Part shown: positions 28,270 to 61,759 of the stretch, one piece after another
Layout: every line of letters starts with the position of its first letter
Numbering within the stretch: position 1 is the stretch's first letter
Source: an uncultured Verrucomicrobiota bacterium
GTDB lineage: Bacteria; Verrucomicrobiota; Kiritimatiellia; RZYC01; CAZAYP01
Direction of reading: 5' to 3'
DNA: 64,000 nucleotides
Assembly (NCBI GenBank): GCA_964489425.1
Contig: CAZAYP010000004.1
Span: 24,956 to 88,955, forward strand
Program-made: the position numbers and the translations under genes
The notes under the pieces: generated by a model
Databases searched by the model: none
Seen by the model: only the letters and a program-made list of their open reading frames with translations
What the model was told of the DNA's origin: nothing

Positions 28270-28394
28270 TGCTGGTAGCCCGCGTTTATAAGGGGCCGGC
28301 GGACACCTGTCAAGGACCGGATTTGACCTTGGCAACGCCGGCCCGGCCATGCTCTAATCGGGTCCATGCAACCGGTTGCTCCAAGGAGGCTGCC

Positions 28395-29246: not shown

Positions 29247-30400
29247 AGGTCATCTACCTGGACAACAACGCCACGACGCAGGTGGCGCCTGAAGTCATCG
29301 AGGCCATGCTCCCGTTTTTCCGCGATTACTGGGGCAACCCCTCGAGCATGCACACGTTCGGCGGGCAGGTTAAAAAGCACGTGGAGCGCGCCCGGGACCA
29401 GGTGGCAGCGCTGATCGGCGCGGACCCCGCGGAGATCATTTTCACCAGCTGCGGATCGGAGAGCGACAACATGGCCATCCGCGGCGTGGTGGACACGCTC
29501 GGCGGGCGCACCCACCTGGTCACCACCTGCGTCGAGCACCCCGCGGTCCTGTCCGTGTGCCATTACCTCGAAACCATGGGCTGCCGCCTGACCGTGCTGC
29601 CGGTGGACGCGGGCGGCCACCTGGACATGGACCAGCTCCGCGCCGCCCTGGCGCGCGACACGTCGCTGGTCAGCATCATGTGGGCCAACAACGAGACCGG
29701 CGTGATTTTCCCCATCGACCAGATCGCGCCGCTGGTGAAGAACGCGGGCAAGATCATGCACACCGACGCCGTGCAGGTGGTGGGCAAGCTGCCGGTGGAC
29801 GTGCGCCGCACGCCGGTGGACATGCTGGCGCTCTCGGGGCACAAGCTGCACGCGCCCAAGGGCGTCGGCGCCCTGTACATCCGGCGCGGCACGCGGGTCA
29901 ACCCGCTGATTGTCGGCGGCCACCAGGAAGGCGGCAAGCGCGCCGGCACGGAAAACGTGCCTTACATTGTCGGCCTGGGCGTGGCCTGCGAATTGGCCCA
30001 GCGCCACCTGGCCGAGGAGCAGACCCGCGTGGCGGCCTTGCGCGACCGGCTCGAGGCGGGCGTTCTGGCCTCCTGCAAGGATGTGCGCGTCAACGGCGAC
30101 CCGCGCGCGCGGCTGCCCAACACCACCAACGTCAGCTTCGAGTTCATCGAGGGCGAGGCCATCCTGCTGCTGCTCGACCAGTTTGGGATCGCGGCGTCGT
30201 CCGGATCAGCCTGCACGTCCGGCTCGCTGGAGCCGTCGCATGTCATCCGCGCCATGGGCGTGCCGTTCACGGCCGCGCACGGGTCCATCCGCTTCAGCTT
30301 GAGCCGCTACAATACGGACGCCGAGATCGACCACACCCTGAAGCATCTGCCGGGCGTGATCGAAACGCTGCGGAAGATCTCGCCGTTCGTGGCGGCGTAG
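29243..30400 (+). CDS. nifS: Cysteine desulfurase NifS (class I)
   Basis: MKVIYLDNNATT..., PLP-lysine region SGHKLHAPKGVGALY, active-site SSGSACTS. 4-nt overlap with nifU. Confidence 0.9.
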   Translation: MKVIYLDNNATTQVAPEVIEAMLPFFRDYWGNPSSMHTFGGQVKKHVERARDQVAALIGADPAEIIFTSCGSESDNMAIRGVVDTLGGRTHLVTTCVEHPAVLSVCHYLETMGCRLTVLPVDAGGHLDMDQLRAALARDTSLVSIMWANNETGVIFPIDQIAPLVKNAGKIMHTDAVQVVGKLPVDVRRTPVDMLALSGHKLHAPKGVGALYIRRGTRVNPLIVGGHQEGGKRAGTENVPYIVGLGVACELAQRHLAEEQTRVAALRDRLEAGVLASCKDVRVNGDPRARLPNTTNVSFEFIEGEAILLLLDQFGIAASSGSACTSGSLEPSHVIRAMGVPFTAAHGSIRFSLSRYNTDAEIDHTLKHLPGVIETLRKISPFVAA

Positions 30401-33500: not shown

Positions 33501-36500
33501 CCGGCAAGGTGGCGTTGGTCAGCACCGCGCTGACTACGCTGACCCGACTCTGGGTCACCACCGACGGGCTGAACGAGACCGTCACCAACGGCTGGCGTAC
33601 CATCACGCCCACCGCGGTCCAGGCGCTGGTCGCGTTGAAGGTGTCCACCGCCTGCACGCGCAGCTCCACGTTGGACGTCCAGGCGTTGGTGTTGATCTGC
33701 CCGCTCATCCATGGCGCCGAGGTCCAGGATCCGCCCTCGTAGCGGTACTCGTAACTGTAGGTATAAGGCGCCATGCCGTTGGTGGCCGAGGCCGTCGAGA
33801 CACTGTTGGAAGCCCCGCGGATGTAGTTGGTGGGATTGCGGGTCAGGGCCACGGAGATGATCGACGGCATGACCGTCAGGGTCGCGGCCGCGCTCCACTC
33901 GCTGGTGATGCTGTTGGCGTCAATCGTGCGCGCCCGGTAATCCACGGTGTTGGGCCAGAAGTTGGTGATCTGCCGGGCGCTGCTGGCCACGTTGCTCCAG
34001 CCGCCGCCGCTGTCCTCCTGCCACTCGTAGGTCACCGGCGCGGTGGTGTTGGTCGCGTTCGCGCTGACCACGCTGACCCGGCTCTGGGTCACCACCGACG
34101 GGCTGAACGAGACCGTCAGCACGGGCTGGCGTGTGACCGTGGACGCCACGGTCCAGGCGCTGGTGGCGTTGAAACTGTCGACCACCTTCACCCGCAGCAT
34201 TACGTTGGAGAGCCAGGCGTTGGTGTGGATCCGGTCGTTCATCCCCGCCGCCGATGTCCAGGTATCGGTCCCATAGGTGTACTCGTAGTTGTAGGTGTAT
34301 GGCGCCATGCCTTTCGAGGCGGTGGCGGTCGAAATGCAGCTCACCCCGCGGACCGTGCTGGTGGAACTGAAAGCCAGGGCCACGGAGATGACCGAGGGCA
34401 TGACCGGCAGGGTCGCCACGGCGCTCCACTCGCTGGTGATGCTGTTGGCATCAATCGTGCGCGCCCGGTAGTCCACAGTGTTGGGCCAGAAGTTGGTGAT
34501 CTGCCGGGCGCTGCTGGCCACGTTGCTCCACCCGCCGCCGCTGTTCTCCTGCCACACGTAGGTCACAGGCAGGGAGGCATTGGTCACCACCGCGCTTGCC
34601 ACGCTGACCTGGCTCTGGGTCACGATCGATGGGCTGAAGGTGACCGTCACCAGCGGCTGGCGCACCTGCACGCCCACCGCGGTCCAGGCGCTGGTGGCGT
34701 TGAAGCTGTCCACCGCCTGCACGCGCAGTTCCACGTTGGACGGCCATGCGTTGGTGATGACCTGCCCGCTCATCCACGCCGCCGGGCTCCAAGATCCGCC
34801 CTCGTAGCGGTACTCGTAACTGTAGTTAAAAGGCGCCATGCCGTTGGTGGCCGAGGCGGTCGAGACGCTGTTGGAGGTTCCCCGGACATAGTTGGTGGGG
34901 TTGCGGGTCAGGGCCACGGAGATGATCGACGGCATGACCGTCAGGGTCGCGGCCGCGCTCCACTCGCTGGTGATGCTGTTGCCATCCACGGTGCGCGCCC
35001 GGTAATCTACTGAAGCCGGCCAGAAGTTGGTGATCTGCCGGCCGCTGTCCACCACGTTGGTCCAGCCGCCGCCCTCGTCCTTCTGCCACTCATACGTCAA
35101 CGGCGCCGTGGTATTTGACACCACCGCGCTGAGCACGCTGACCCGGCTCTGGGTCACCACCGACGGGCTGAACGCCACGATCACCCGCGGCTGGCGGATG
35201 CCCAGGGACGCCACGGTCCAGGCGCTGGTCGCGTTGAAACTGTCCACCACCTGTACGCGCAGTTCCGTGTTGGAGGCCCAGGCGTTGGTATGCACCCGGT
35301 CGGACATCCACGACGCCGAGGTCCAGGTGTCGGTTCCGTAACGATACGCATAACTGTAAGAATACGGCGCCATGCCGCTGCTGGCGGTGGCGGTCGAGAC
35401 GCTGTTGGAACCCCGCATCGTGTTGGTGGGGCTGAACACCAGGGCCACCGCAATCGCCGACGGCATAACGGTCAGCGTCGATGCGGCGCTCCATTCGCTG
35501 GTCACGTTGTTGGCGTCCACGCTGCGCGCCCGGTAGTCCACGGTGTTGGGCCAGAAATTGGTGATTTGCCGGGCGCTGCTGGCCACGTTGCTCCACCCGC
35601 CGCCGCTGTTCTCCTGCCACACGTAGGTCACCGGCAGGCTGGCGTTGGACACCACCGCGCTGACCACGCTCACCTGACTCTGGGTCACCACCGCCGGGCT
35701 GAACGAGACCGTCACCGCGGGCTGGATCACCGCCACCGCGGCCGTGGCCCAGGCGCTGGTCGAGCTGAAACTGTCCACCACCTGCACGCGGAGATCAACG
35801 TTGGAAGGCCAGGCGTTGGTTTGCACCCTGCCGCTCATCCAGGACGCCGCGGTCCACTCGCCGGCCCCATAGCGGTATTGGTAAACATAGGTGTACGGTG
35901 CGGTTCCGTTGGTCGCGGTGGCGGTCGAGACGCTGTTGGAGCCCCGCAGCATGTTGGTGGGGCTCGCCACGAGGGTGGCCGCGATTTCCGAGGGCATCAC
36001 CATCAGGGTGGCAGCCGTGCTCCAGTCGCTCGTGACGCGGTTGGCGTCCAGGCTGCGCGCCCGATATTGCACCGTGGCCGCCCAGGCATTCGAATAGGTC
36101 GCAACGCCTATGCCGGGCACCGCGGTCCACCCGCTCAGGGGGTTGGTGGTCGTGTTTTGCTGCCACTCGTACACCACCGGGGCCGTGACGTTCGCCACGC
36201 TGGCGCTGACCACGCTGTACTGGCTCTGGGTCACCACCGTCGGGCTGAAGGCCACGGTCACTTCCGGTTGGCGCACGGCCAGGAAAGCCGTGGCCCAAGC
36301 GCTGGTCGAGTTAAAGCTGTCGGCCACCCGTACGCGGTATTCCATGTTGGACCACACCACGAGCGTGTTCACCGCCGAGGTACTGCTCGCCGCGATCCAG
36401 CTGCCTTCGCCGCCCCAGCGATACTCGTAGCTGTAACGATACGGCGCGGTCCCGTTCGTGGGCGACGCCGTCAGTGTGCTGGAGGCGCCCCGCACTATGC

Positions 36501-38247
36501 TGGTTGGATTAAACACCAGGCTGGCGGCAATCTCGGAAGGCATCACGGTCAGGGTCGCCGCCGCGCTCCAGTCGCTGGTGATGCTGTTGGCATCGATGGT
36601 CCGCGCCCGGTAATCCACCGTGGCGGGCCACACGTTGGTCAGCGCCGACCCGGTCCCAGCCACGCTTGTCCACCCACTGCCCGTGTTCTGTTGCCATTGG
36701 TAGGTCACGGGCAAGGTAGCATTCGACACCACCGCGCTCGCCACGCTGGACTGGCTCTGCGTCACGACCGACGGGCTGAACGCCACAGTTACCTCGGGTT
36801 GCCGAACGGTCAAGAACGCCATGGTCCAGGCGCTCGTCGCATTGAAACTGTCCGTTACCCGCACACGGTATTCCAAGTTGGAATACCAGGCATAGGTGGT
36901 CACCGCCGACGTCATGCTCGCCAAGCGCCACGTCCCCTCCCCGCCCCAGCGGTATTCATAGCGGTAGCGATACGGCGCCGTCCCGTTGGTGGGCACCGCG
37001 GTCATTGTGCTGGCCACCCCGCGCACCATGTTGCTGGGATTGAACGTCAGGGTCGCAGCGATCTCAGACGGCATCACCGTAAGCGTTGCCGCCGCGCTCC
37101 AGTCGCTCGTCACGCTGTTGGCGTCAATACTGCGCGCGCGTACGTCCACCGTGGATGCCCATGCGCTCGTGACGGCCGAGCCGCTGCCGGCTACCGTGGT
37201 CCATCCGCTGCCCGTATTCTGCTGCCACTGGAAGGCCACGGGCAAGGTGGCGTTGGAAACGGTCGCGCTGACCACGCTGAACTGGCTTTGGGTCACAACC
37301 TCCGGGCTGACCGCCACGGCCACCCCGGGTTGGCTCACTCTCAGGAACGCCGCTACCCACTGGCTGGTGGCCCCAAAAGTGTCGGTCACGCGCACCCGGT
37401 ATTCCAGATTAGACCACCAGGGATACGTCTTCACCGCCGTGGTAAAGCCCGCCGTGGTCCAGGTCCCGGTGCCATTCCATCGGTACGCATAACTGTACGT
37501 ATACGGCGGGGTTCCATTGGTCGCCACCGTGGTCAGCGAACTGGCCACCCCCCGCACCACGTTGCTCGGGATGAACTCCAGGGTCGCCGCGATCTCCGTG
37601 GGCAGCACGGTCAGGGTCGCCGCGGTGCTCCAACCGCTGGTCACGCTGTTCGCATCCACGCTGCGCGCACGCACATTCACCGTGACCGGCCACACGTTGG
37701 TGATATCCGACCCGCTCCCGACCACATTGGTCCACCCGACCGACGGGTTCGTCGTTGTGTTCTGTTGCCACTGGTAGGTCACCGGCAAGGTCACGTTCGT
37801 GGCCAGGGCGCTTGCCACGCTGGACTGGCCCTGCGTCACCACCGACGGGCTGAGCGTGACCGCCGCCCCCGGCTGGCGGACAATCAGGGTTGCCGCAGCG
37901 CTCCAGACGCTGGTCGCGCGGGCGCTGTCCACCACCCGCGCCCGGTATTGCCGGCTGGCTGGCCAGGCAAAGATATTGGTGGGACTGGTCATGCCGGAGG
38001 CGCCCCAGTTGGTTGCACCGGCGAGACGCGTCTGGTACTGGTACGTGTACGGAGCGGCGCCTCCGGACGGCACGGCAGTCAGCACCGTATTTGAACCGTT
38101 GATGATGATCAACGGATTGAAGCTAAGGGACACCGTTACGGCGGACACGGTGGTAGCCCACAGCGCAGATCCACAACACAGCGCCATGAGCACGGAGATG
38201 CTCCGTTGTGGACGCTTATTCACTGTGGAAACAATGTGCTTTTTCAT
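30595..38247 (-). CDS. Giant secreted repetitive protein. About 13 tandem copies of a roughly 178-aa unit made of two alternating roughly 90-aa beta-rich modules; probable surface adhesin or fibre.
   Basis: 2550 aa from the ATG at 38247, which has an AAGGAG RBS 8 nt upstream. Signal peptide present. See findings for the repeat consensus and the non-repetitive C-terminal domain. Confidence 0.85.
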   Translation of the reverse strand: MKKHIVSTVNKRPQRSISVLMALCCGSALWATTVSAVTVSLSFNPLIIINGSNTVLTAVPSGGAAPYTYQYQTRLAGATNWGASGMTSPTNIFAWPASRQYRARVVDSARATSVWSAAATLIVRQPGAAVTLSPSVVTQGQSSVASALATNVTLPVTYQWQQNTTTNPSVGWTNVVGSGSDITNVWPVTVNVRARSVDANSVTSGWSTAATLTVLPTEIAATLEFIPSNVVRGVASSLTTVATNGTPPYTYSYAYRWNGTGTWTTAGFTTAVKTYPWWSNLEYRVRVTDTFGATSQWVAAFLRVSQPGVAVAVSPEVVTQSQFSVVSATVSNATLPVAFQWQQNTGSGWTTVAGSGSAVTSAWASTVDVRARSIDANSVTSDWSAAATLTVMPSEIAATLTFNPSNMVRGVASTMTAVPTNGTAPYRYRYEYRWGGEGTWRLASMTSAVTTYAWYSNLEYRVRVTDSFNATSAWTMAFLTVRQPEVTVAFSPSVVTQSQSSVASAVVSNATLPVTYQWQQNTGSGWTSVAGTGSALTNVWPATVDYRARTIDANSITSDWSAAATLTVMPSEIAASLVFNPTSIVRGASSTLTASPTNGTAPYRYSYEYRWGGEGSWIAASSTSAVNTLVVWSNMEYRVRVADSFNSTSAWATAFLAVRQPEVTVAFSPTVVTQSQYSVVSASVANVTAPVVYEWQQNTTTNPLSGWTAVPGIGVATYSNAWAATVQYRARSLDANRVTSDWSTAATLMVMPSEIAATLVASPTNMLRGSNSVSTATATNGTAPYTYVYQYRYGAGEWTAASWMSGRVQTNAWPSNVDLRVQVVDSFSSTSAWATAAVAVIQPAVTVSFSPAVVTQSQVSVVSAVVSNASLPVTYVWQENSGGGWSNVASSARQITNFWPNTVDYRARSVDANNVTSEWSAASTLTVMPSAIAVALVFSPTNTMRGSNSVSTATASSGMAPYSYSYAYRYGTDTWTSASWMSDRVHTNAWASNTELRVQVVDSFNATSAWTVASLGIRQPRVIVAFSPSVVTQSRVSVLSAVVSNTTAPLTYEWQKDEGGGWTNVVDSGRQITNFWPASVDYRARTVDGNSITSEWSAAATLTVMPSIISVALTRNPTNYVRGTSNSVSTASATNGMAPFNYSYEYRYEGGSWSPAAWMSGQVITNAWPSNVELRVQAVDSFNATSAWTAVGVQVRQPLVTVTFSPSIVTQSQVSVASAVVTNASLPVTYVWQENSGGGWSNVASSARQITNFWPNTVDYRARTIDANSITSEWSAVATLPVMPSVISVALAFSSTSTVRGVSCISTATASKGMAPYTYNYEYTYGTDTWTSAAGMNDRIHTNAWLSNVMLRVKVVDSFNATSAWTVASTVTRQPVLTVSFSPSVVTQSRVSVVSANATNTTAPVTYEWQEDSGGGWSNVASSARQITNFWPNTVDYRARTIDANSITSEWSAAATLTVMPSIISVALTRNPTNYIRGASNSVSTASATNGMAPYTYSYEYRYEGGSWTSAPWMSGQINTNAWTSNVELRVQAVDTFNATSAWTAVGVMVRQPLVTVSFSPSVVTQSRVSVVSAVLTNATLPATYEWQEDSGGGWSNVASSARQITNFWPNTVDYRARTIDANSITSEWSAAATLTVMPSIISVALTRNPTNYVRGTSNSVSTASATNGMAPYTYNYEYRHEGGEWATAAWMGGQINTNAWTSNVELRVQAVDTFNATSAWSSVGVMVRQPLVTVSFSPVAVTQCYSSVASAVVTNATLPVNYEWQQNYGPGWTDVSGSGSTITNIWPTNVACRARTIDANSVTSEWSAAANLTILPSAISATLTFNPLSVNRGSNCVLTATATNGMAPYTFSYEYRYDSEGWTEAAGMTAAVTTNAWASNVEYRVQVMDSFGASAWATAALVVRQPSVTVAFSPASVAQSRSSVVSATATNTIEPVTFEWQQNSGSGWANVADSGSAITNVWPATIQYRARSVDANSLTSGWSDAATLTVLPSEIAASLEFNPTTIIRGSNTVMTASATSGTAPYRYSYQYRWGGTGTWNSASITSAVTTYAWYSNLEYRVRAVDSFNATSAWAAATLTVLQPAVSVAFAPSVITQSQSSVVSALATNVTLPVTFQWQQNLTTNLLTGWTNVVGSGDALTNVWPATVQYRARSVDANTITSDWSAAATLTVMPSAISATLEFNPTTVIRGSNSVMTATATNGTAPYRYSYEYRWGGAGSWVVAGVTSPVTTYAWRSNLEYRVRVVDSFNATSAWAAATLTVLQPAVSLAFSPTQVVYGASSVLSATVSNTVEPYVFQFETRATGAVAWSSSPIVSAVTTNQWLSGVEYRARVIDANSVISEWSAVAVLSVLDPPVSVSLALNTNQVSFGNPVVVTATPVGGTGPYVFEYQSKDITVPGYDWVTEDGLTNAVVTNTWYNDVSIRVRVWDMATTNLSYWSPAVNLVVLAPESRLASPVITGLGIGARDSAALPKGQVGAEGTVGITVSWDGSAGKEFSIHVAEAVTGPWRVHPDAQYIQGQDGPMSLTILVDEAVPAMFFRVRERELVPAK
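30900..38100 (-). repeat. Intragenic tandem repeat array with a period of about 534 bp; central copies near-identical
   Basis: Alternative-frame ORFs 32852..33364, 33386..33898 and 33920..34429 (each offset by exactly 534 bp) encode almost identical peptides. Copies 34451.. and 35090.. are slightly diverged. Confidence 0.8.
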
Positions 38248-38591
38248 GCCCCGCTCCTTGCTAAACACCACGTTGCGTACTGCTTAAAATCGATATGCTG
38301 CTCAAGATGATCAATATACCCAAAAGGGAGGCTAAAGTTAAAATTGCAGGACCACTTTTTCATGAGATCAATACTACTCTTAAAATCGGCCAAAACTCAG
38401 CTAAATCAAGTAATTCGCCGATCTATAGACTAAAAGGTGCTTGTTCCCTGTATTTCTCACGACCAACCATCGCCATCAGCATAGCCGGCGGCCCGGGGGA
38501 AAAATGCCCCAAAGTCGTTATTTTGAAATATCTTATTTAACTGTTCAACAACAGGTTGTGGAACGGCATCTGCACTTTCGCTTCAACCGAC

Positions 38592-50538: not shown

Positions 50539-53500
50539 CTATTCGCTGAGCAGCATCATCCAGGGGATGCCGCGCGGTTCGCCGGCGGCCTGGCGGATGG
50601 TGACCATCTGGTCCGCGACGGAAACCGTGCCAGTGCGGCCGTACAGGTCGGAATTGGCGGCCACGGCCAGGGATACCGTACCGGTCCCCTGCCCCGCGCC
50701 CAACCCTTGCACCGTAATCCAGGCGGCCGACGGCGTGCCGCAGTTCCAGTAACAGGCGGGACTGCCGGGCGTCACAGTGACCGCGGCCATTGCGCCGGTG
50801 CTGGGAACCATGAAATCCTGCGGCGCCACTTGATAGGAACAGGCCGTGTAGCGGCCGGTGACGACCGTGACCTGGCCCGAAACGACCAGCACGGACTGGG
50901 TCCCCGGCGCCATGTATCCGGGCAGGGTTTGGCGGAATCCGACCGTGTAGGTGCCGGCCGGCAAGCTATCGCGCACTTCGCCGTTGGTGAGGGCCGTGTA
51001 CACCCACGGATACACCGACCACGTGGTGACGGCCGCGATATTGGTTGGTTCCAGCCACGCCTGGATGGCGCCCACGCTGGAACCGGCGCCGTCCTGGACA
51101 GCGGTGAACACCTCGTTGGCCACGTACAGCAGGCCGGTGCGCGGCCCGGCGCCGGGCCAGTTGGGCGCCGCGAGGTACTGCACGGTGCCCGTGCCGATCC
51201 CGGTGGCATTGGTCATCACCGTCAGCCACGCGCCCAGGCCGGCGTCACGCGCGCTCCAGGCGCAACCCGCGGCCGCGCCCACCTCGAACGTGCCGTCGCC
51301 GCCCTCGAAGGGGATGGTCACCGCGAACGGGGCCAGGGAATACTGGCAACCGGCGAACCGCACATCCGCCGTGCTATTGGCGGTGATATTGCTCCACGAA
51401 AACACAAAGCGATCCCAACCAATGGCTGCCGGCACGGGTTGGCCATTGGCCAGCAGGCGATCGATGTAGTAGTTGGTTTCCGCAGTGATGACCCACGACA
51501 GGGTGCCGCCGTGCGTCACCGGCGTCAGGCCGGCCGGCGCGATGCTGCCATGCGCCCCGGCCTGCGCCAGGACAAAGTGCTGGGTGCTCACGCCCGAGTA
51601 GGCAAAAGCGTTGGACTTGACCGTCTCGCCCATGCTGGCGGAGAAGACCCGCACATCCCCGGTGCACGCGGAATAGGACCCGCCGGCCAGCACTTCGACC
51701 ATGCCCGCCCGCTGGGTAACAATCGTGGCCATGATGCTACACAACGTCACGTTGGTGATGTCCGTGCCATTGCCGAGGTTCAAGCCGCTCAGGATCACCG
51801 GCGTACCGCCCACCATGGGCGCAAAATCCGGGACCACCTGGTCCAACCGCCCCAGGCTGTGCACGACGCCCAGGCCATACGCGGCGGCCGGGCCCAACTT
51901 GAACAGGTCGCCGCCCACAAACTGGTTGTAGCCGTTGTCCTGGACCGCCCGGACTTCCCAATCCGTGGAATAGATCCAGCCACTGTCCAGCACGCCGGAG
52001 GACGTCTGGACGCGGCCGATGTTGGAGACCGCCACCCCGCCCACCGCGTAAAAACCGCCACCGATGTACACCACCGGGCCGCGCGGGAGAATGGCAGCGA
52101 CCGGTCCGTCCGGGCTGGGCGCCCAGTTGAGGTCCACGGCCCCGGTATTCAAGTCCAGGCGCAGCAGGTTGGTCGGTCCTGTGACCGGTTCAAAGTACCC
52201 GCCCAGGTACAGATGCCCTTCTCCGGCGGCCATGTCCATAAGCATGGGGAACACGTACCCCGCGCCGTTCGTCCAACTTGGATCCAGCACGCCAGTCTGC
52301 AGGTCCAGCCGCCCCACCATGTCGGCCAACCCGCCGCCAATCTCTGAAAATAAGCCCGCGGCATACAGGAATCCGTTGGTGACCACCAGGCTTTGCAGCA
52401 CACCATCGCAGCCGTTGGTCCACCCGGCGCGCGGGGCACCGGAATACCGGTCCACGCATCCAATGGCGGCGAACGCTGCCTGCCCGAGGTTGGTGAAGTC
52501 CCCGGCCACGTACAGGTTGGTCTGCCAAATCGCCAGATCCGCGATGCTCCCATCGGTATCGTTGGACCAAGCCGGGTCTACCGCGCCGTCCGGCAGGCGC
52601 ATCTTGGCCAGGCCGAACCGGGTCAGGTTGCCCGCCGCATAAAACTGCCCGCCGACAAACACATCGGTTCCTTCAGCCGCGAGGCAGGTCACCGGCCCGT
52701 TGACGCTGTTGCTCCACACCGTGTTCACGGTCCCGTCCTCTTCCAGCAGCGCCAGGTTATGTTGCCAGAAGCCATTGATGACATCAAACTCGCCGCCGGC
52801 GATCACTTGCCCGCCGGGCAGGGTCAGCAGGGTCGAAACCACTCCCCCGGCCATGGCGCGGGCAGTATATCCGGGAACCACGCCGCCCGTGGCCCCCACG
52901 ACCAGGCCGCACCCATACCGCGGCCGATCGCCGCCCAGCAGGAAGTTGCCCGCCATCCAGACATTGCTGCCCTGCATTTCCATATCGTAGGGCGTGCCGT
53001 AGATGTTCCACCCACCCTCGCTCAACCTGGCCCCGGTCTGCAGATCGAAGCGCACCAGGTGGCCATCCGCGGCATACAACGCCTGGTCATCCGCGGCGAG
53101 CGCGTAAGGGGCATTGAAGTTATTGGTCCAGGCCGGATCCGCCGCGCCATTGGCCGGCAGCAAGCGCGCCAGGCCCTGGCGCGGCGCGCCACCCACGGTG
53201 GCGAACTCGCCGCCGATGAACAGGCCGGCACTGGTAGGCAGGATGACATTGACGCCACCATCCGCGCCATTGGTCCAGTTGTTGTCCAAGGCCCCCGTGG
53301 CGCCATCAAAACAGGCGATAAACTGCCGCAGCGACCCGTTCACGTTGGTGAACCGGCCGCCCGCGTACAGCCGGCCGTTGTCCCAGGCCAGCGCACGGAC
53401 CGACCCACCGGAAATGCGATTGGTCCAGGCCGGATCGGCTGCTCCGGTGGCCAGGCTGAATCGCGCGAGGCTGGCGAAGGTCATGCCATTGGTCTGCTCA

Positions 53501-53970
53501 AAGGTGCCACCCACGTACAGGTTGGTACCATCCGTGGCCAGGGCATTCACCTCGCCATCGATCAGGTTGGTCCAGGCCGGGGTCAACTGGCCGGTGGTGA
53601 TGTCCAGCCGCCCCAGGCCAACACAAGGCTGGCCGCCCACGGCATGGAAGCTGCCGCCGATATACAGGTGGGTCCCGGCCACCAGGGCCGCCATGACCGA
53701 TCCGTCGCACCCCTGGGTCCAGGCCGTGTCCAGCGACCCGTCCGGGTTGAGCCGCGCCAGGTTTTCGCGCGGCTGGCCGTTGACCAGGTTGAACCAGCCG
53801 CCAATCACCCGGTCGCCGTCCGGGAGCAGTGCGCCGGCCCACACCACGCTGGGCCGCTCCAGGGTCAAGCCGCTGGCGTAGCCAGCCCAGGCCTGGTCCC
53901 AGCCGCCCCACGGGACCATAAGGAACAAGGCCAGAATCGTCGCGATGCATACATGATGGGATCTCTGCAT
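50539..53970 (-). CDS. Large secreted beta-propeller-repeat protein with IPT/TIG-like, InlB-B-repeat-like and BACON-like C-terminal domains
   Basis: Signal peptide after MQRSHHV. More than 15 repeats of the pattern ...G..Y.GG.F..V.G..R..LARL...G..D..W... Late region GCQYSLAPFAV...CAWSA matches BACON. Confidence 0.7.
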   Translation of the reverse strand: MQRSHHVCIATILALFLMVPWGGWDQAWAGYASGLTLERPSVVWAGALLPDGDRVIGGWFNLVNGQPRENLARLNPDGSLDTAWTQGCDGSVMAALVAGTHLYIGGSFHAVGGQPCVGLGRLDITTGQLTPAWTNLIDGEVNALATDGTNLYVGGTFEQTNGMTFASLARFSLATGAADPAWTNRISGGSVRALAWDNGRLYAGGRFTNVNGSLRQFIACFDGATGALDNNWTNGADGGVNVILPTSAGLFIGGEFATVGGAPRQGLARLLPANGAADPAWTNNFNAPYALAADDQALYAADGHLVRFDLQTGARLSEGGWNIYGTPYDMEMQGSNVWMAGNFLLGGDRPRYGCGLVVGATGGVVPGYTARAMAGGVVSTLLTLPGGQVIAGGEFDVINGFWQHNLALLEEDGTVNTVWSNSVNGPVTCLAAEGTDVFVGGQFYAAGNLTRFGLAKMRLPDGAVDPAWSNDTDGSIADLAIWQTNLYVAGDFTNLGQAAFAAIGCVDRYSGAPRAGWTNGCDGVLQSLVVTNGFLYAAGLFSEIGGGLADMVGRLDLQTGVLDPSWTNGAGYVFPMLMDMAAGEGHLYLGGYFEPVTGPTNLLRLDLNTGAVDLNWAPSPDGPVAAILPRGPVVYIGGGFYAVGGVAVSNIGRVQTSSGVLDSGWIYSTDWEVRAVQDNGYNQFVGGDLFKLGPAAAYGLGVVHSLGRLDQVVPDFAPMVGGTPVILSGLNLGNGTDITNVTLCSIMATIVTQRAGMVEVLAGGSYSACTGDVRVFSASMGETVKSNAFAYSGVSTQHFVLAQAGAHGSIAPAGLTPVTHGGTLSWVITAETNYYIDRLLANGQPVPAAIGWDRFVFSWSNITANSTADVRFAGCQYSLAPFAVTIPFEGGDGTFEVGAAAGCAWSARDAGLGAWLTVMTNATGIGTGTVQYLAAPNWPGAGPRTGLLYVANEVFTAVQDGAGSSVGAIQAWLEPTNIAAVTTWSVYPWVYTALTNGEVRDSLPAGTYTVGFRQTLPGYMAPGTQSVLVVSGQVTVVTGRYTACSYQVAPQDFMVPSTGAMAAVTVTPGSPACYWNCGTPSAAWITVQGLGAGQGTGTVSLAVAANSDLYGRTGTVSVADQMVTIRQAAGEPRGIPWMMLLSE

Positions 53971-54146
53971 GGTTTTCTCCTGTCGGTTAGACGATGGCTC
54001 GCACATGGATTCGGCAAAAAATGGCAGCAATAAAAGTTCCGGGCCGGATTGATGTTGGTGTCTTGTAACATCGGATGATAGTATTCCCTCTGTTTGAATA
54101 AGTACAGGCTGAGGCGGGCACGAATCAATCTAAATATTGAGGGATC

Positions 54147-54926: not shown

Positions 54927-55970
54927 TCAGCCGCCGGACGCATAGCCCGGGCCGGGTCGGATCCAGCCGGCGTCCACGTACGCCCGCGCGGTCTGCGCCA
55001 GGCCGGTCTCATTCGTGTACCGGGTCTTGTACCCCAGCACCTCGCGCAGCTTGCGGGTGTCGAACGCGCGATCCTTGGTAAAGAAAGCCACCCGCCGCCG
55101 GTACAGCGGCGGCGCAATGCGCAACGGCCGGCAGACCGCCTCGCAGATCGCTGCGGCCACAAAAAACGGCGTCACGGGCAAATGCAGGGGGCGGAACGGA
55201 TACCCCAGCACGCTGGCGATCTGGCGCCCGATCTCCTCCAGCGTCAGGGCGCGCTCGTTCCCGCAGATAAACACTTCGCCGGCCGCCGCCGGATGCGTGG
55301 CCGCCAGCATCATGATGTCCGTGAGATCCTCGACATGCACCAGGTGGTACAGGTTGCCGGCCCCGAGGATCACAAAAAACGGCCGCGTCGCCATCTTGAA
55401 CAGCTTGAGCAGGCGGCGGTCGCCCGGCCCCAGGATCGCGGCCGGACGCAACACCACGTAAGGCAACCCGGTGTCCGCGCCGAAATTGCGAATCCAGTTT
55501 TCGGCTTCCGCCTTGGTCACTTGATAAATGTCGCCCGGATCAAACCGGTAGCGCTCATCGGCAGGCGGGTGCTCCACGTGGCCATGCACCCCCACGGTGG
55601 ACACATGCACGAACCGCTTGAAGCCGGGATGGGACCGGGCCGCCTGCGCCAGCAGCTGGGTGCTGGCCACGTGCACCTGCCGGTACACGTCATCCGCAAG
55701 CCCGGCTTCGCGGTACGCCGCGGCCACGTGGAAAATATAGTCTGCGCCGGCCGCCGCGCGCCGGACGGTGGCCTCGTCAAACACCTCGCCGCGAATCCAT
55801 TCGACGGGCACCCCGGCCAGCGGCTCGAGGTGGGATGATGGACGGGCAATCGCCGCCACCCGGGCGCCCTGCGCTGCCAGTTTGCGCGCCAGCAAGCTGC
55901 CGGTGAACCCGGTCGCGCCGGTCACCAGGACCCGCGCGCCAGCCAAAGGTTGGTCATCCGTGGTTTTCAT
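54927..55970 (-). CDS. NAD-dependent epimerase/dehydratase (extended SDR)
   Basis: VLVTGATGFTGS Rossmann motif, catalytic YxxxK (YQVTK). Start at MKTTDDQ, overlapping the upstream methyltransferase stop by 4 nt. Confidence 0.8.
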   Translation of the reverse strand: MKTTDDQPLAGARVLVTGATGFTGSLLARKLAAQGARVAAIARPSSHLEPLAGVPVEWIRGEVFDEATVRRAAAGADYIFHVAAAYREAGLADDVYRQVHVASTQLLAQAARSHPGFKRFVHVSTVGVHGHVEHPPADERYRFDPGDIYQVTKAEAENWIRNFGADTGLPYVVLRPAAILGPGDRRLLKLFKMATRPFFVILGAGNLYHLVHVEDLTDIMMLAATHPAAAGEVFICGNERALTLEEIGRQIASVLGYPFRPLHLPVTPFFVAAAICEAVCRPLRIAPPLYRRRVAFFTKDRAFDTRKLREVLGYKTRYTNETGLAQTARAYVDAGWIRPGPGYASGG

Positions 55971-56767
55971 GTGTTTGATTTCCCGGTGGGTTGGGCGGGT
56001 GGCGGACAGCGCGCCATGTGGGCGATCACGGGCGAGCCCCAGCGGCGCGTCCATCCCGCCAGCGAGCAGACCCATTCCAGCCCCGCGGACAAGGGCGCGC
56101 AGCGCAGCGTGCGGTGCAGCACCATGGGCAGGAAGAATTGCGGCTGCCGGGCCACGCATTGGAATCCATGACGCTGGAACTCATCCACCACCTCCGCGTG
56201 GCGGAACAAGGTGTACGGCCGGGTGTTGCCCTCGATGCGCTTCTTGAGGCCAAACAGTTTTTCTGAAAACGCGTTGAGGCTCTGCGAGGTGGGATAATCC
56301 ACGATCACCGAGACCCGCGCCACGCGGCACAGGTCCGCCACCAGCCGGGGCCATTCCGGGCTATGCGGCAGAAGCCGCAGGCACACCAGATGGTCGAACG
56401 CGCCCGAGGTAAACGGCAACTCCACCACGCTGCCCACCACGAACTTCAGGCGGCCGGCCGCGACCTCCTCCGCCAGGCGGACACCGCAGACCGACGCGCT
56501 GCCCAGGACGGTCACGTCGTAGCCGGCGCGCGCCAGGGGGATGGCCACCTGGCCATGTCCGCCGCCCACATCCAGCAGGCGGCCGGCCGGCGCCGGGATC
56601 ATGGACCTGACGATCCGTTCCTGGACCCGCAGCATCCAGGCGCCGGTGCGCCCGGCAAACCGTGCCGCGTAGCCGGCGGAAGAAGTTTCTATATCCGCGG
56701 GCTCCGGCGCGGCGGATCGACGTGCTCCAGGCATTTTTTCAGCGCTCATCCTCTTGGCATCCATCAT
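55967..56767 (-). CDS. Class I SAM-dependent methyltransferase
   Basis: LLDVGGGHGQVAIPLARAGYDVTVL motif I and post-I region. Confidence 0.7.
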   Translation of the reverse strand: MMDAKRMSAEKMPGARRSAAPEPADIETSSAGYAARFAGRTGAWMLRVQERIVRSMIPAPAGRLLDVGGGHGQVAIPLARAGYDVTVLGSASVCGVRLAEEVAAGRLKFVVGSVVELPFTSGAFDHLVCLRLLPHSPEWPRLVADLCRVARVSVIVDYPTSQSLNAFSEKLFGLKKRIEGNTRPYTLFRHAEVVDEFQRHGFQCVARQPQFFLPMVLHRTLRCAPLSAGLEWVCSLAGWTRRWGSPVIAHMARCPPPAQPTGKSNT

Positions 56768-56895: not shown

Positions 56896-57690
56896 ATGGC
56901 GATCACGGAAGCTTTGAGCGCGGCGACGGCCACCTCCCCCGAGGCCAACGGGGTCGAAGTCGGCAAGCCCGGCGGCGAACTGGGCAAGAACGAATTCCTC
57001 AACCTGCTGGTGGCCCAGATGCAGCATCAGGACCCCCTGGACCCGGTAGACAACAAGGAAATGATCGCCCAGTTGGCGCAGTTCAGCGCCTTGGAACAGA
57101 TGCAGAACCTTAACACCCAGACGGAGAAGCTGCGTCAATCGCAAGCATTCAACCTCTACGCCGATATGTTCGGCAACTTCACGGCCTTGGTGCTCAAGAG
57201 CGGCGAGGTCGTGGAAGGCACCCCGGCGGGCATCAACTGGCGCGACGGCGAGGCGTATATCCAGATGGATTCAGCCACCGAAGTACCCCTCTCCGAGGTG
57301 GTCAAATTTGCCATGGTGACCCAGGAAGAGTTGGCCGCGGCCATCGCGGCCCAAAACCCGGCTTCGCGCGAGAGCGGCACCGGGGCGGAGTCAGCCCCGG
57401 CGGCCAAAACGGCGGCCGTGGCCAGCCGTGGCGGCTTTGGCAACCCGGCCGAGCAGAACGCCGCGCAACGCATGGGCGGCTCGATCGTGCGCTCCTCGGA
57501 CGGCCACGCGGTGGCCGGCAACCTGGGCGGCACCATCAACGGCCAGCATCGCAACGACCTGATATTGAACTGGAACTTCGTGGAATACACGGAGAACGGC
57601 CAACTCCACAAGATTCCCATCACGCGCGACCTGAATGTGGTCATGGACAACCGCAACGCCCAGGCGGCCGTGGACCGGTCCCGGCACTGA
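56896..57690 (+). CDS. flgD: Flagellar hook capping/assembly protein FlgD-like
   Basis: N-terminal LGKNEFLNLLVAQMQHQDPLDPVDNKEMIAQLAQFSALEQMQNLN is the conserved FlgD N-domain; a beta domain follows. No other flagellar genes in the window. Confidence 0.65.
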   Translation: MAITEALSAATATSPEANGVEVGKPGGELGKNEFLNLLVAQMQHQDPLDPVDNKEMIAQLAQFSALEQMQNLNTQTEKLRQSQAFNLYADMFGNFTALVLKSGEVVEGTPAGINWRDGEAYIQMDSATEVPLSEVVKFAMVTQEELAAAIAAQNPASRESGTGAESAPAAKTAAVASRGGFGNPAEQNAAQRMGGSIVRSSDGHAVAGNLGGTINGQHRNDLILNWNFVEYTENGQLHKIPITRDLNVVMDNRNAQAAVDRSRH

Positions 57691-58313: not shown

Positions 58314-58385
58314 AGCGGCCGTCTGTTTCCTGTTGCATGCATAAAGCCATCATGTATGAATTGATGGAAACAACAAGGTGAAAAA

Positions 58386-59552
58386 TTGACGACCCGATCT
58401 CTCCCGGGCGTGAACCAGGCCATGGCGTGGTTCGGCCACATGGTGGAGCATTGCCTGGACACCGCCCGGCAGGCCAGCGCCGCCGGACAGCCCATCGTGG
58501 GGATCATGTGCGAATACACCCCGCGCGAGATCATCATGGCCGGCGGCGGCGTGCCGGTGTGCCTGTGCGGCGGATCGGCGCGCATGGCGGCGGCCGCCGA
58601 GGGCATCCTGCCGCCGGCGCTGTGCCCCGTGATCAAGGCCACTTTTGGCTACCACCTGCAAAAAGCCAACCCGTTCCTGGAAATGGCCGACCTGATCGTG
58701 GCCGAAACCACGTGCGACGGAAAAAAGAAAATGTTCGAACTGCTGGCCGGGGATCGCGCCGTACGCGTGCTGGAACTGCCCCAGAAAGCCGGGGACGCCG
58801 ACGCGCTCTTCCACTGGCGCCGGGAACTTGAAAAGCTGATCGAGTTTCTCGAAGCGCGGTGGCGGGTGAGCATCACCGCGGATGCGTTGCGCGCGGCCAT
58901 CCGCGCCATGAACCGCGACCGGGACCTGCGGCGCCGCCTCGCCGGGCTCATGCGCCAGGCCGATCCGCCCCTGACCGGCCGCCAACTCCTGGAGCTGAAA
59001 AGCCTGATTGCCTGCCAGCCGGACGACTGGCAGGTGTATGCACAGGTGCTTGCCGCCGGCGCGGCCGGCACGGATGAGGTGGCGGCCCCCGGCCGCCGGG
59101 TGCGCGTCCTCTTGACCGGCGTGCCCCTGCCCCACGGCGCGGAACGGGTCATGGACCTGGTCGAGGCGCAAGACGCCCTGGTGGTAGCCCAGGAGAACTG
59201 CACCGGCCTGAAACCACTGGAAGAAGACATTGATCCCGAAGCCCAGGACCTCCTGGGCGCCATCGCCGAAAAATACTTCCACCTGCCCTGCTCCGTGATG
59301 ACCCGCAACGACCGCCGGCTGGAAAATCTGGCGCGCCTGGCGCAAGACTATCGCGTGGAATGCATCGTGGAACTGGTCTGGCAGGGCTGTCACACCTATG
59401 CTGTTGAAGCGCGCCAGGTCCAGGCCCTGGCCGACCACCTCAAGCTGCCTTATCTGCGGATCGAAACCGACTATGCGCCGGCGGATTCCGCCCGCATCGT
59501 CACCCGGCTCGAAGCGTTGTTCGAAACCGTCCGCGCCCGGCGCCCAAAATGA
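58386..59552 (+). CDS. 2-hydroxyacyl-CoA dehydratase-family protein (HGD-D component family, YjiM-like)
   Basis: 388 aa. N-terminal IVGIMCEYTPREIIMAGGGVPVCLCGG matches the HgdA/HgdB/BcrB family. Conserved Cys residues (C.EY, TTCDG, ENCTG). TTG start at 58386; an alternative ATG lies at about 58422. Confidence 0.7.
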   Translation: MTTRSLPGVNQAMAWFGHMVEHCLDTARQASAAGQPIVGIMCEYTPREIIMAGGGVPVCLCGGSARMAAAAEGILPPALCPVIKATFGYHLQKANPFLEMADLIVAETTCDGKKKMFELLAGDRAVRVLELPQKAGDADALFHWRRELEKLIEFLEARWRVSITADALRAAIRAMNRDRDLRRRLAGLMRQADPPLTGRQLLELKSLIACQPDDWQVYAQVLAAGAAGTDEVAAPGRRVRVLLTGVPLPHGAERVMDLVEAQDALVVAQENCTGLKPLEEDIDPEAQDLLGAIAEKYFHLPCSVMTRNDRRLENLARLAQDYRVECIVELVWQGCHTYAVEARQVQALADHLKLPYLRIETDYAPADSARIVTRLEALFETVRARRPK

Positions 59553-60328
59553 TCAGCCTTGGAGTGGATGTCGGGTCCCGCGCGATCAAGGTTGCCATCC
59601 TTGACCCGGAGCGGCGCACGGCCCCGTACTTCGCGGCCTGCGACCAGGAACCCGACCCGGTCGCCGCCACCGGGCGGCTGCTGGAGCAAGCCCTGCGGGA
59701 CTGCCGCCGCGCCTGGGCGGACGTGGGCCGCGTCTGGGCCACGGGGTACGGGCGGCGCCAAGTCACGCGCGCGCACCAATGCGTGTCGGAGATCACGGCC
59801 CACGCCCGCGGCGTGGCCCACGTGTGCCCGGGCACGCGCACCGTGCTGGATGTGGGCGGCCAGGACTGCAAGGCCATCCTGCTGGCCCCGGACAGCGGGG
59901 TGGCCGACTTCCAGATGAACGACCGCTGCGCGGCCGGCACCGGCCGGTTTTTTGAGGTCATCGCGCCACGCCTGGGCGTGCCGGTGGATGGGCTGGGCCG
60001 CCTGGCTGCCGCGCGGACGGCGCCTTGCGCCATCTCCAGCATGTGCGCCGTGTTCGCCGAAACCGAGGTGGTTGGCCTGCTGGCAGCCGGGCGGCCACCG
60101 GCCGACATCGCCGCCGGGATCCTGGAAGCCGCGGCGCAGCGCATTGCGCTGCTGGCCGGGCCCCGGCCGCTGGCGCCCGTGGTTGTGACAGGCGGAGGCG
60201 CGCTGGTGCCCGGCCTGCCCGAGGCGCTCGCGGCCGCGCTGAAGATGCCGGTTCACGCCGCGCCCGGCGCGCGCTTTACGGGTGCGCTGGGCGCCGCCTT
60301 GCTGGCCGCGGGCGATGGCGCCACCTGA
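59549..60328 (+). CDS. CoA-substrate-specific enzyme activase (BadF/BadG/BcrA/BcrD ATPase; HgdC/YjiL-like)
   Basis: ISLGVDVGSRAIKVAIL (acetate/sugar-kinase fold phosphate-1), conserved MNDRCAAGTGRFFE cluster-binding motif, C-terminal VVTGGGA. ATGA overlap with the upstream gene. Confidence 0.8.
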   Translation: MISLGVDVGSRAIKVAILDPERRTAPYFAACDQEPDPVAATGRLLEQALRDCRRAWADVGRVWATGYGRRQVTRAHQCVSEITAHARGVAHVCPGTRTVLDVGGQDCKAILLAPDSGVADFQMNDRCAAGTGRFFEVIAPRLGVPVDGLGRLAAARTAPCAISSMCAVFAETEVVGLLAAGRPPADIAAGILEAAAQRIALLAGPRPLAPVVVTGGGALVPGLPEALAAALKMPVHAAPGARFTGALGAALLAAGDGAT

Positions 60329-60394
60329 TCCGCCGCGGCCGGCGGCGCCACGATTCTATTGGATTTCCTGCGCGAAAAATCTTACTGCTGGTGC

Positions 60395-61759
60395 ATGGCG
60401 ACCCTGCACACAGAACCCAGCAGCCAAATCACGAGCGGTCCCCTGCCCCGCGCGATTCTTGGCCTGGCCACGCCCATGCTGGTCGCCGCGCTGTTGCAGA
60501 ACCTGCAAAGCCTCATTGACCTGTTCTGGGTCGGCCGGCTGGGCCCGCGGGCCGTGGCCGCGGTGGCTGTCAGCGGCACCATTGTCATGCTGCTGTATCC
60601 GATGCTGATGGGCCTTGGCACCGGCACGGTGGCGCTCGTCGCGCGCGCGGTGGGCGCCCGCGATTATGCCGGCGCCGGCAACGCGGCGGGGCAGTCGCTC
60701 ATGCTGGCCGTGGTGCTGGGGGCCGCGGGCGGGCTGCTGGGCTGGTGGCTGACGGATGATTTGCTGCGGCTGCTCGGGACGCCGGCCGACGTGTTGCAGG
60801 ATGGTCACGACTACCTGCGGATCATCCTGCTGGGCAGCATCTCGGTGTTCGTGCTGCTCATGGGCAATGCCGCGCTCCAGGGCGCGGGCGACACCATCAC
60901 CCCCATGTACATCATGGGCGCGTCCAACCTGCTGAACATCGTGCTCGATCCGCTGCTGATCTTCGGGCCGGGTCCGTTCCCGGCGCTGGGCGTTTCCGGC
61001 GCGGCCGTGGCCACGGTGCTGGCCCAGGGGCTCGCCGGCGCGGTGGGCATCACGATCCTGCTGACCGGGCGCACCCGCCTGCGCCTGCACTGGCGCCAAC
61101 TGCGGCCGGACTGGAGCATGGCCTGGAGGATCCTGCGCATCGGCCTGCCGGGCTCGGGCCAGATGCTCTCGCGCAGCCTGATGAGCGCAGTGCTCATGCG
61201 CATCGTGGCCGGCCTGGGCACCGCCGCCGTGGCGGCGTACGGCACCGGGTTGCGCTTCCACATGATCATCCTGATGCCGGCGTTTGCCCTCGGCGGCGCC
61301 GCGGCCACCATGGTGGGCCAGAATCTCGGCGCAGGGCAACCGGAGCGCGCGCGGCGGGGAGCCTGGCTGGCCACGGGCATGGACATGGCGTTCATGGCCC
61401 TGGCCGCGGTGCTCATGATGGGGTTTGCCAAAGAGCTGACCGGCCTGTTCAATAAAGATCCGGAAGTGGTCCGGCTGGGCGCCCGCTACCTGGTTATCGT
61501 GTCGCCGTTCTACGTGGCCGCGGCCCTGGGGATCGTGCTGGGCCGCGCGCTGAACGGCGCGGGCGACAGCCTGGCGCCCATGATATGCACCGTGGTCAGC
61601 CTCTGGGGATTGCAGGTGCCCCTGGCCTTATACCTGCCCCGAATCTGGTCACCGCCCATCGAGGGCGTCTGGTGGGCCGTGGGCGCAGCCATGACGCTGC
61701 ATGGCTTGCTGATTGCCGGCTGGTTTGCAACCGGACGCTGGCGCCACAAGAACATATGA
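60395..61759 (+). CDS. MATE family efflux transporter
   Basis: 12 TM. N-terminal ILGLATPMLVAALLQNLQSLIDLFWVGRLG and the duplicated 6-TM architecture typical of NorM-like MATE. Confidence 0.85.
   Translation: MATLHTEPSSQITSGPLPRAILGLATPMLVAALLQNLQSLIDLFWVGRLGPRAVAAVAVSGTIVMLLYPMLMGLGTGTVALVARAVGARDYAGAGNAAGQSLMLAVVLGAAGGLLGWWLTDDLLRLLGTPADVLQDGHDYLRIILLGSISVFVLLMGNAALQGAGDTITPMYIMGASNLLNIVLDPLLIFGPGPFPALGVSGAAVATVLAQGLAGAVGITILLTGRTRLRLHWRQLRPDWSMAWRILRIGLPGSGQMLSRSLMSAVLMRIVAGLGTAAVAAYGTGLRFHMIILMPAFALGGAAATMVGQNLGAGQPERARRGAWLATGMDMAFMALAAVLMMGFAKELTGLFNKDPEVVRLGARYLVIVSPFYVAAALGIVLGRALNGAGDSLAPMICTVVSLWGLQVPLALYLPRIWSPPIEGVWWAVGAAMTLHGLLIAGWFATGRWRHKNI

Follow-up and report, generated by a model that had tools for sequence, protein, structure and literature searches.

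The DCCP:DCCP-R system of Carboxydothermus hydrogenoformans (CHY_0487/CHY_0488; Protein Data Bank [PDB] entries 6ENO, 7YYL, and 7YZM) is encoded by two genes, one for a double-cubane cluster protein (DCCP) and one for its reductase (DCCP-R), an ATPase of the ASKHA fold that carries a [4Fe-4S] cluster. Structures of the DCCP family have been solved and its ATP-dependent reductase chemistry has been shown (PMC7317905, PMC9351452), and the physiological substrate was still called unknown in 2025 (PMC11971306). Here, we describe a pair of genes in a 64-kb stretch of DNA (contig CAZAYP010000004.1, positions 24,956 to 88,955; hereafter, the window, in whose coordinates all positions are given). The first gene (58386-59552, + strand) encodes a YjiM-like protein with the HGD-D fold, and the second (59549-60328, + strand) encodes an activase. 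Judged by their sequences, the two proteins are a DCCP:DCCP-R pair and not a dehydratase that is missing a subunit, because the HGD-D protein passes the NF040772 family model, has 6ENO and 7YYL as its closest solved relatives, and possesses all seven signature cysteines, while the activase keeps its cluster cysteines and ATP motifs. We put the probability that the pair is a functional, minimal, two-component and ATP-driven reductase of very low potential, belonging to the short YjiM-like class, at roughly 85%.

A preliminary description of this locus, made from its sequence, had recognized a single HGD-D subunit beside an HgdC-type ATPase, which our Pfam and NCBIfam searches confirmed, but its label of a radical dehydratase-type module was wrong, as NF040772 is a double-cubane reductase family. 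It had also treated the YjiM-type family as functionally uncharacterized; this is now the DCCP family, with the structures and chemistry cited above. Its statement that substrate and chemistry are unknown holds for the substrate, across the whole family, but not for the reductase chemistry. Similarly, the window does contain just one HGD-D gene, as the description had pointed out, but this is no anomaly, since DCCPs are homodimers.

Comparison with described systems

The C. hydrogenoformans DCCP (DCCPCh) resembles the window protein in its fold (TM-score normalized by query length [TMq], ∼0.90) and in its seven cysteines, and is assigned to the same equivalog family of NCBIfam, although the two share only ∼30% identity in the Foldseek alignment. 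The window protein lacks ∼35 to 45 N-terminal residues of its C. hydrogenoformans counterpart and seemingly has an alanine in place of Asn111, and its partner activase is longer (259 versus 243 residues) and is nearer to HgdC and MbdQ.

The parallel with the Escherichia coli YjiM/YjiL pair, which had been drawn in the preliminary description, was borne out by identities of 37% (DCCP) and 40% (activase) and by the placement of both YjiM and the window protein in NF040772. YjiM, an uncharacterized "class II" protein, is likewise a short form (383 residues, versus 376 to 388 in the window), has near-identical cysteine spacing, and is followed directly by its activase gene. It differs in having SLCSTS, and thus in lacking the first cysteine of the CLCGG motif of the window protein. 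Further, yjiM and yjiL are 9 bp apart, whereas the window genes overlap, and the E. coli neighbors are yjiN, mdtM, and ytiA.

2-Hydroxyacyl-CoA dehydratases (HgdAB and HadBC, with the activators HgdC and HadI) are members of the same superfamily that form α/β heterodimers, carry [4Fe-4S]/[4Fe-5S] clusters held by three cysteines, and use CoA esters that a CoA-transferase provides. The window activase matches HgdC (1.4e-44), with both cluster cysteines kept, but the heterodimer, the three-cysteine clusters, and the CoA-transferase are all lacking at the window locus. BzdN/MbdN of the class I benzoyl-CoA reductases (8S02 and 9G87) shares the HGD-D fold and an [8Fe-9S] cluster that is fed by an ASKHA ATPase (PMC11971306). 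It is, however, only ∼21% identical to the window protein, and it forms a heterodimer with BzdO and works with the BzdPQ ATPase, itself a heterodimer, whereas the window carries a single HGD-D gene and a single ATPase gene and so does not contain the four-subunit set (two HGD-D and two ATPase subunits) of these enzymes.

Family assignment, cysteine signature, and predicted fold

The 388-residue window protein, which contains an HGD-D domain (PF06050, 2e-88), scored 378.3 bits on NF040772 ("double-cubane-cluster-containing anaerobic reductase"; cut-off, 350 bits), with the match spanning profile positions 11-371 of 372. For comparison, E. coli YjiM scored 531 bits on this model and a relative (from locus L018) 416 bits. 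On the competing equivalog models, scores were 58.8 bits for BzdN (cut-off, 453.8), 52.9 bits for BcrC (cut-off, 421), and 40.1 bits for HadC (cut-off, 700), and the HadB model gave no match to the window protein, the cut-offs of the HadC and HadB models being 700 to 750. With BzdN and BcrC so far under their cut-offs, and with a single HGD-D gene and a single ATPase gene, the protein is not a BcrB/C-type subunit within a bcr or bzd cluster, in agreement with the preliminary description. The closest solved relatives by sequence are the DCCP entries 7YYL and 6ENO (3e-57), followed by BzdN (4e-13) and then HadC (1e-5).

We verified the codons of all seven signature cysteines on the + strand, numbered here in the 388-residue form. 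They are Cys42 (58509-58511), Cys61 (58566-58568), Cys80 (58623-58625), Cys110 (58713-58715), Cys272 (59199-59201), Cys302 (59289-59291), and Cys335 (59388-59390). All seven align to cysteines in 6ENO and 7YYL, and their columns are invariant in alignments of 20 and of 32 sequences and across the window protein, its homologs from the Planctomycetes-Verrucomicrobia-Chlamydiae (PVC) group, and YjiM. The spacing is 18/18/29/161/29/32 in the window protein and 18/18/29/164/28/32 in YjiM. The published pattern CX19CX18-19CX29CX166-170CX32-34CX32C was not used as a criterion, because the window protein, YjiM, and all of the homologs likewise fail a literal match. Six of the seven cysteines ligate the [8Fe-9S] cluster in DCCPCh, whereas the second, Cys94, sits beside it (PMC7317905); the ligand numbering was taken from this 2020 review, and the counterpart of Cys94 in the window protein is Cys61.

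An AlphaFold2 model of the window protein, built with 32 homologs, reached a pLDDT of 86.6 and a pTM of 0.88. The top five Foldseek matches of this model were all DCCP chains (TMq, 0.89 to 0.91, with 0.90 for 7YZM and 7YYL; E value, 2e-26), whereas TM-scores against BzdN and HadC were lower, at 0.85. The alignment to 6ENO begins at residue 30 of the query and residue 64 of the chain, and the two proteins differ in length (376 to 388 versus 421 residues); the TM-score is 0.81 when normalized by the target and 0.90 when normalized by the query. The N-terminal region that is missing from the window protein comprises the channel-closing helices in the C. hydrogenoformans enzyme (PMC7317905). Going by its sequence, then, the window protein is a short "class II" form like YjiM, with a complete seven-cysteine motif and no N-terminal helices (class as defined in PMC7317905). 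The absence of these helices suggests that its active site may be more open than the characterized small-molecule channel.

The partner ATPase and a proposed mechanism

The 259-residue activase (DCCP-R, or "archerase," of the ASKHA fold) contains a BcrAD_BadFG domain (PF01869, 2.7e-46) and scored 207 bits on TIGR00241 (cut-off, 125), compared with 128 bits on the BzdQ model (cut-off, 380) and 120 bits on the BcrD model (cut-off, 313). Its two cluster cysteines, Cys127 (59927-59929) and Cys166 (60044-60046), were verified on the + strand. They reside in the motifs MNDRCAAGTGRF and SSMCAVFAE, which align with the HgdC motifs MNDKCAAGTGRF and SSTCTVFAE, whose cysteines we take to be the [4Fe-4S] ligands of HgdC. 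The counterparts of these residues in DCCP-R are Cys115 and Cys152 (PMC9351452). The phosphate motifs are also present, as GVDVGSRAIK and DVGGQD (including DVGS and GGQD).

By homology to the C. hydrogenoformans proteins, the ATPase would be a homodimer in which a single [4Fe-4S] cluster, bound by Cys127 and Cys166 of each monomer, bridges the two subunits. After a ferredoxin or flavodoxin of the cell has reduced it, it would bind MgATP and dock on the 388-residue partner, which is likewise expected to be a homodimer. ATP hydrolysis and product release would then push an electron uphill into the double-cubane [8Fe-9S] cluster, for which Cys42, Cys80, Cys110, Cys272, Cys302, and Cys335 are the predicted ligands, with Cys61 placed next to the cluster. 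The super-reduced cluster could in turn reduce a substrate beyond the reach of ordinary cellular reductants. What the window itself shows is the family to which the proteins belong, their fold, the set of cysteines, the ATPase partner, and the overlap of the genes, whereas the cluster type, the oligomeric state, and this path of electron flow are carried over by analogy and would be as in the characterized pair.

Gene organization and coding evidence

The three open reading frames (ORFs) of the locus, namely those of the DCCP, the activase, and a transporter discussed below, as well as the ATGA overlap and the motifs named in the preliminary description (MCEYTPREIIMAGGGVPV and MNDRCAAGTGRFFE), were all confirmed in the sequence. 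The 388-residue form of the DCCP starts at a TTG (58386) that is preceded, at a distance of 5 nt, by the Shine-Dalgarno (SD)-like sequence AAGGTGA; public gene calls (P0001) use the ATG at 58422, which gives 376 residues. The stop codon of the DCCP gene and the start codon of the activase gene share the ATGA at 59549-59552, which implies translational coupling. Pfam scores for the HGD-D, BcrAD_BadFG, and MatE domains are all far over their cut-offs. In a region of 65 to 73% GC, the three + strand frames have a GC content at third codon positions (GC3) of 0.83 to 0.89, so that the long antisense ORFs are artifacts of high GC content. Among 153 residue positions with high conservation, the window protein has substitutions at 11, every one conservative; given these conservative changes, the intact ORFs, and the high GC3, we rejected a decaying or pseudogene copy. 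Promoter and terminator scans were uninformative, with terminator-like sites on the + strand found only within the activase gene or 5′ of the DCCP start.

Operon forms and selenium genes among relatives

Thousands of homologs of the window DCCP are present in the protein database, the closest of which are 60 to 65% identical and come from Kiritimatiellae, Verrucomicrobiota, Planctomycetota, and Phycisphaerae bins; several PVC homologs (60 to 63% identity) are named "double-cubane-cluster-containing anaerobic reductase" by NCBI. We fetched 80 genomic loci, in which every ORF was scored against the proteins of the window; 58 of these loci are the closest relatives and 21 belong to outer clades. 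Of the 58 closest loci, 35 have a long operon with the order DCCP-X1-X2-activase (25 complete, seven cut by contig ends, two without an activase in the available sequence, and L060, where X1 and X2 lie upstream of a DCCP-activase fusion ORF). Examples are L018:7893-12258 as well as L006, L012, L013, L022, L028, L045, and L084, among others. X1 is an HGD-D protein of ∼325 residues with three conserved cysteines, and X2 one of ∼460 residues with an N-terminal extension of ∼100 residues and seven conserved cysteines. Neither has a close solved or curated relative, the best PDB match being 6ENO for both (1e-7 and 1e-11, respectively). A methyltransferase of 268 residues adjoins the DCCP gene in 31 of the 35 long operons, but in none of the 13 close loci that, like the window, have the bare overlapping pair. 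Independent gene calls show both arrangements, with four genes at L084 and a stand-alone overlapping pair in unrelated surroundings at L085. In a neighbor-joining tree, the two-gene form turns up at scattered positions in the clade, and the outer clades (Firmicutes, Desulfobacterota, Vibrionaceae, and YjiM) are two-gene.

Selenium genes recur at the close loci. Of the 58 close loci, ∼27 have selA, selB, or a selD with a fused AhpD/CMD domain no more than 8 kb away, compared with two of the 21 outer loci (examples are L018:123-7880, L006, L021, L025, L049, L050, L056, and L058, among others), and a NapH-like ferredoxin often accompanies the sel genes at close loci. Many DCCPs of the PVC clade also bear a cysteine-rich N-terminal tail (MSKCCG..DPCxPP..C). 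In three of them, an in-frame TGA stands where homologs have a cysteine in this tail (L021, ∼7893-7910; L026, ∼3120; L013, ∼7959), the contexts being MTSUKPDK against MSKCCGDK, and ..SGSGUAP.. and ..PPAGUAT.. against ..xCG... At L021, a strong SD sequence precedes the ATG and a hairpin follows ∼15 nt after the TGA. As read from these sequences, the three proteins may be selenoproteins, which standard gene calling would cut short.

The stretch ATG-AAT-TGA-TGG ("MNUW...") within 58356-58385 of the window bears a superficial resemblance to the short, putatively selenocysteine-containing N terminus of L021. A selenocysteine N terminus of the window DCCP, starting at the in-frame ATG at 58356 and reading through the TGA at 58362 ("MNUWKQQ..."), was judged to be a chance occurrence: the upstream ATG has no SD sequence, whereas the TTG at 58386 has a good one, and the fold downstream of the TGA (-14.2 kcal/mol) is no better than that of shuffled sequences (-12.3 ± 2.9 kcal/mol) and lends no support to a SECIS-like element.

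The window DCCP shares with the PVC-type clade its core and the extra conserved cysteines Cys11, Cys47, and Cys314 (376-residue numbering). Unlike most members of this clade, which carry the cysteine-rich tail, two extra HGD-D genes, an adjoining methyltransferase, and nearby selA/selB/selD, the window locus is without the tail, X1 and X2, the adjoining methyltransferase of the long operon, and the sel genes; a search of the 64 kb for X1/X2, SelA/SelB/SelD, and NapH-like genes found none. Taken by itself, the locus contributes a further member, whose host is a Kiritimatiellia-like PVC bacterium, to a family that curated models already recognize, and it offers no new handle on function because its surroundings are not conserved. 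Its value lies in the contrast that it provides, as a minimal two-gene form in a clade that usually has two HGD-D paralogs, a methyltransferase, and selenocysteine/selenophosphate machinery.

Two earlier, unexplained reports are relevant here. HGD-D/activase genes are listed among the STRING-associated genes of a Slackia selenium cluster (PMC5322559, Table 1), and proteins of the NF040772 family are almost entirely confined to genomes that contain SelD (10.1101/2022.07.06.499078). The link to sel genes in the present clade fits with, and extends, both reports; together with the clade contrast, they make selenium or metalloid chemistry a concrete direction in the search for the DCCP/YjiM substrate. 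A further step, namely that the window pair is a pared-down representative of a selenium-linked double-cubane system found across PVC bacteria, is one that we offer tentatively and consider rather unlikely. Were the task of the family the ATP-driven reduction, at very low potential, of a selenium or organo-metalloid species, such as selenide supply to SelD or reduction of a methylated metalloid, the DCCP/YjiM role would become testable, and the minimal catalytic core of that system would be the gene in the window. At the level of the clade, and beyond the window locus itself, the selenium link and the extended operon are the lead that deserves to be followed. A sao locus, a set of nine genes (encoding an ABC transporter, the ArsP-like SaoE, the MerB-like SaoL, and others) that is associated with double-cubane proteins (10.1101/2022.07.06.499078), was not apparent: Pfam and NCBIfam scans of the window genes gave no sao-like gene, although no sao-specific search was made, and the transporter next to the pair is not an ArsP-like SaoE.

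Alternative explanations

Several observations weigh against assigning the window pair to a minimal catalytic DCCP system. The margin on NF040772 is just 28 bits, so that the window DCCP is peripheral in the family, and its branch in the neighbor-joining tree is long. The 11 conservative substitutions at highly conserved positions are a further caveat. The activase is nearer in sequence to the activators of benzoyl-CoA reductases and to those of 2-hydroxyacyl-CoA dehydratases than to C. hydrogenoformans DCCP-R, with PDB matches of 1.9e-50 to MbdQ and 1.4e-44 to HgdC (1HUX), but 2.2e-33 to DCCP-R (7YYL_E). Asn111 of DCCPCh touches a cluster cysteine of DCCP-R (PMC9351452); by residue counting from the 6ENO/7YYL alignment, the corresponding position is an alanine in the window protein (LPPALCP), whereas it stays an asparagine in the clade consensus and in YjiM (LPANLCP and LPRNLCP). 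The bare two-gene module is, moreover, not the form found in most of the closest relatives. Finally, a catalytic role for the cluster is something that we infer, since the same double-cubane cluster in BzdN is an electron store and not a catalytic site (PMC11971306).

This BzdN precedent opens the way to a different reading, in which the window DCCP would be an electron store or relay within a larger enzyme resembling benzoyl-CoA reductase, served by the same activase, with X1 and X2 encoded elsewhere in the genome. The prevalence of the DCCP-X1-X2-activase order (35 of the 58 closest loci, with the L084 example confirmed by independent gene calls), the conserved cysteines of X1 (three) and X2 (seven), and the position of L004, a locus of the long-operon type, as the nearest neighbor of the window in the tree all speak for it. 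So does the one related methyltransferase gene of the window (27466-28350, - strand; ∼30 kb from the DCCP gene), whose product shares 40% identity (205 bits) with the long-operon methyltransferase; since full-length methyltransferases adjacent to DCCP genes at other loci all score higher (309 to 424 bits), however, it may be a paralog. With no X1 or X2 homolog in the window, with the bare overlapping pair standing at 13 close loci and at L085, and with C. hydrogenoformans DCCP catalytically competent with its reductase alone (PMC7317905), we regard such a larger enzyme as unlikely. A radical 2-hydroxyacyl-CoA dehydratase of an atypical, homomeric kind, or some other enzyme that converts CoA esters, activated once by the ATPase, is more improbable still, and we give it very little weight. 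Such an enzyme would account for the HGD-D fold, the HgdC-type activase, and the HadC structural match (TM-score, 0.85), and a short YjiM-like N terminus has been suggested to admit a CoA ester or another large substrate (PMC7317905). Nevertheless, the protein has the full seven-cysteine double-cubane signature in place of the three-cysteine [4Fe-4S] set, it reaches 40 bits or nothing on models with cut-offs of 700 to 750, and no family member is known to catalyze a dehydration. In addition, searches of the 64 kb (phmmer with the DCCP and two paralog families) found no second HGD-D gene, and neither next to the DCCP gene nor elsewhere in the window was a CoA-transferase found, the sole acyl-CoA-type gene seen being that of an AMP-binding enzyme 12 kb off. 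The locus is thus not a conventional dehydratase operon, as the preliminary description had already held.

The remaining alternative concerns the gene that follows the pair, which encodes a MATE-family efflux transporter (60395-61759, + strand; PF01554 [MatE], 6.7e-73; TIGR00797, 314 bits). Its ORF is open from 60359, and the probable start is the ATG at 60395 used in the gene call, which leaves a gap of 66 bp to the activase stop. Because it adjoins the pair on the same strand, and as the terminator scan found no terminator-like site between the activase and MATE genes, it may be cotranscribed with them, and the three genes could be envisaged as one unit in which a compound produced or detoxified by the reductase is then exported by the transporter. 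In E. coli, too, yjiML lies two genes from an efflux pump gene, mdtM (L001:9700-13520). MdtM, however, is an MFS and not a MATE transporter, and yjiN stands between mdtM and yjiM; this echo of the window arrangement is probably a coincidence, as it is unsupported across the 80 other loci. A phmmer comparison with all ORFs of the 80 related loci gave a single match, at a distant Tissierellaceae locus, and we rejected the transporter as a functional partner. Within 8 kb of the DCCP gene, a MATE homolog was present at none of the 58 closest loci and at one of the 21 outer-clade loci (L081), and the other genes flanking the pair in the window do not recur either. The proposal in the preliminary description that the transporter exports a product therefore has no comparative support, a three-gene unit is quite improbable, and the MATE gene is probably a chance neighbor outside the DCCP system. 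A self-contained DCCP:DCCP-R reductase remains, in our view, the reading that best fits the pair.

Surroundings of the pair and other features of the window

Upstream of the DCCP gene are genes for a PAP2-like membrane protein (- strand), FlgD (+ strand), a methyltransferase (55967-56767, - strand), and an NmrA/epimerase-like protein (- strand); downstream, the MATE gene is followed by genes for an SHD1-like protein (+ strand) and HisRS (- strand). None of the PAP2, FlgD, methyltransferase (55967-56767), NmrA-like, SHD1-like, HisRS, DUF5122, zincin, or FGE-sulfatase genes recurs in a meaningful manner at the related loci. The flgD-like gene (flagellar hook cap; 56896-57690, + strand; PF03963, 1.5e-24), which stands between a methyltransferase gene and the PAP2-like gene, is isolated, as the window has no further flagellar gene close to it.

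Elsewhere, the window encodes housekeeping proteins (ParB, PEPCK, Ffh, PurH, TyrRS, S1, and NifS) and large secreted proteins. The NifS cysteine desulfurase gene (28925-30400, + strand; TIGR03402, 610 bits) is divergent from the methyltransferase gene at 27466-28350. The best named matches of Ffh are to Kiritimatiellia, Lentisphaerae, and Verrucomicrobiota, at 65 to 72% identity, which places the host in the PVC group, nearest to Kiritimatiellia-labeled bins. Three very large ORFs on the - strand (30595-38271, 21402-25037, and 50539-54030; 2558, 1211, and 1163 residues, respectively) look like the giant secreted or surface proteins that are typical of PVC bacteria, and the last of them carries DUF5122/Rax2-like repeats.

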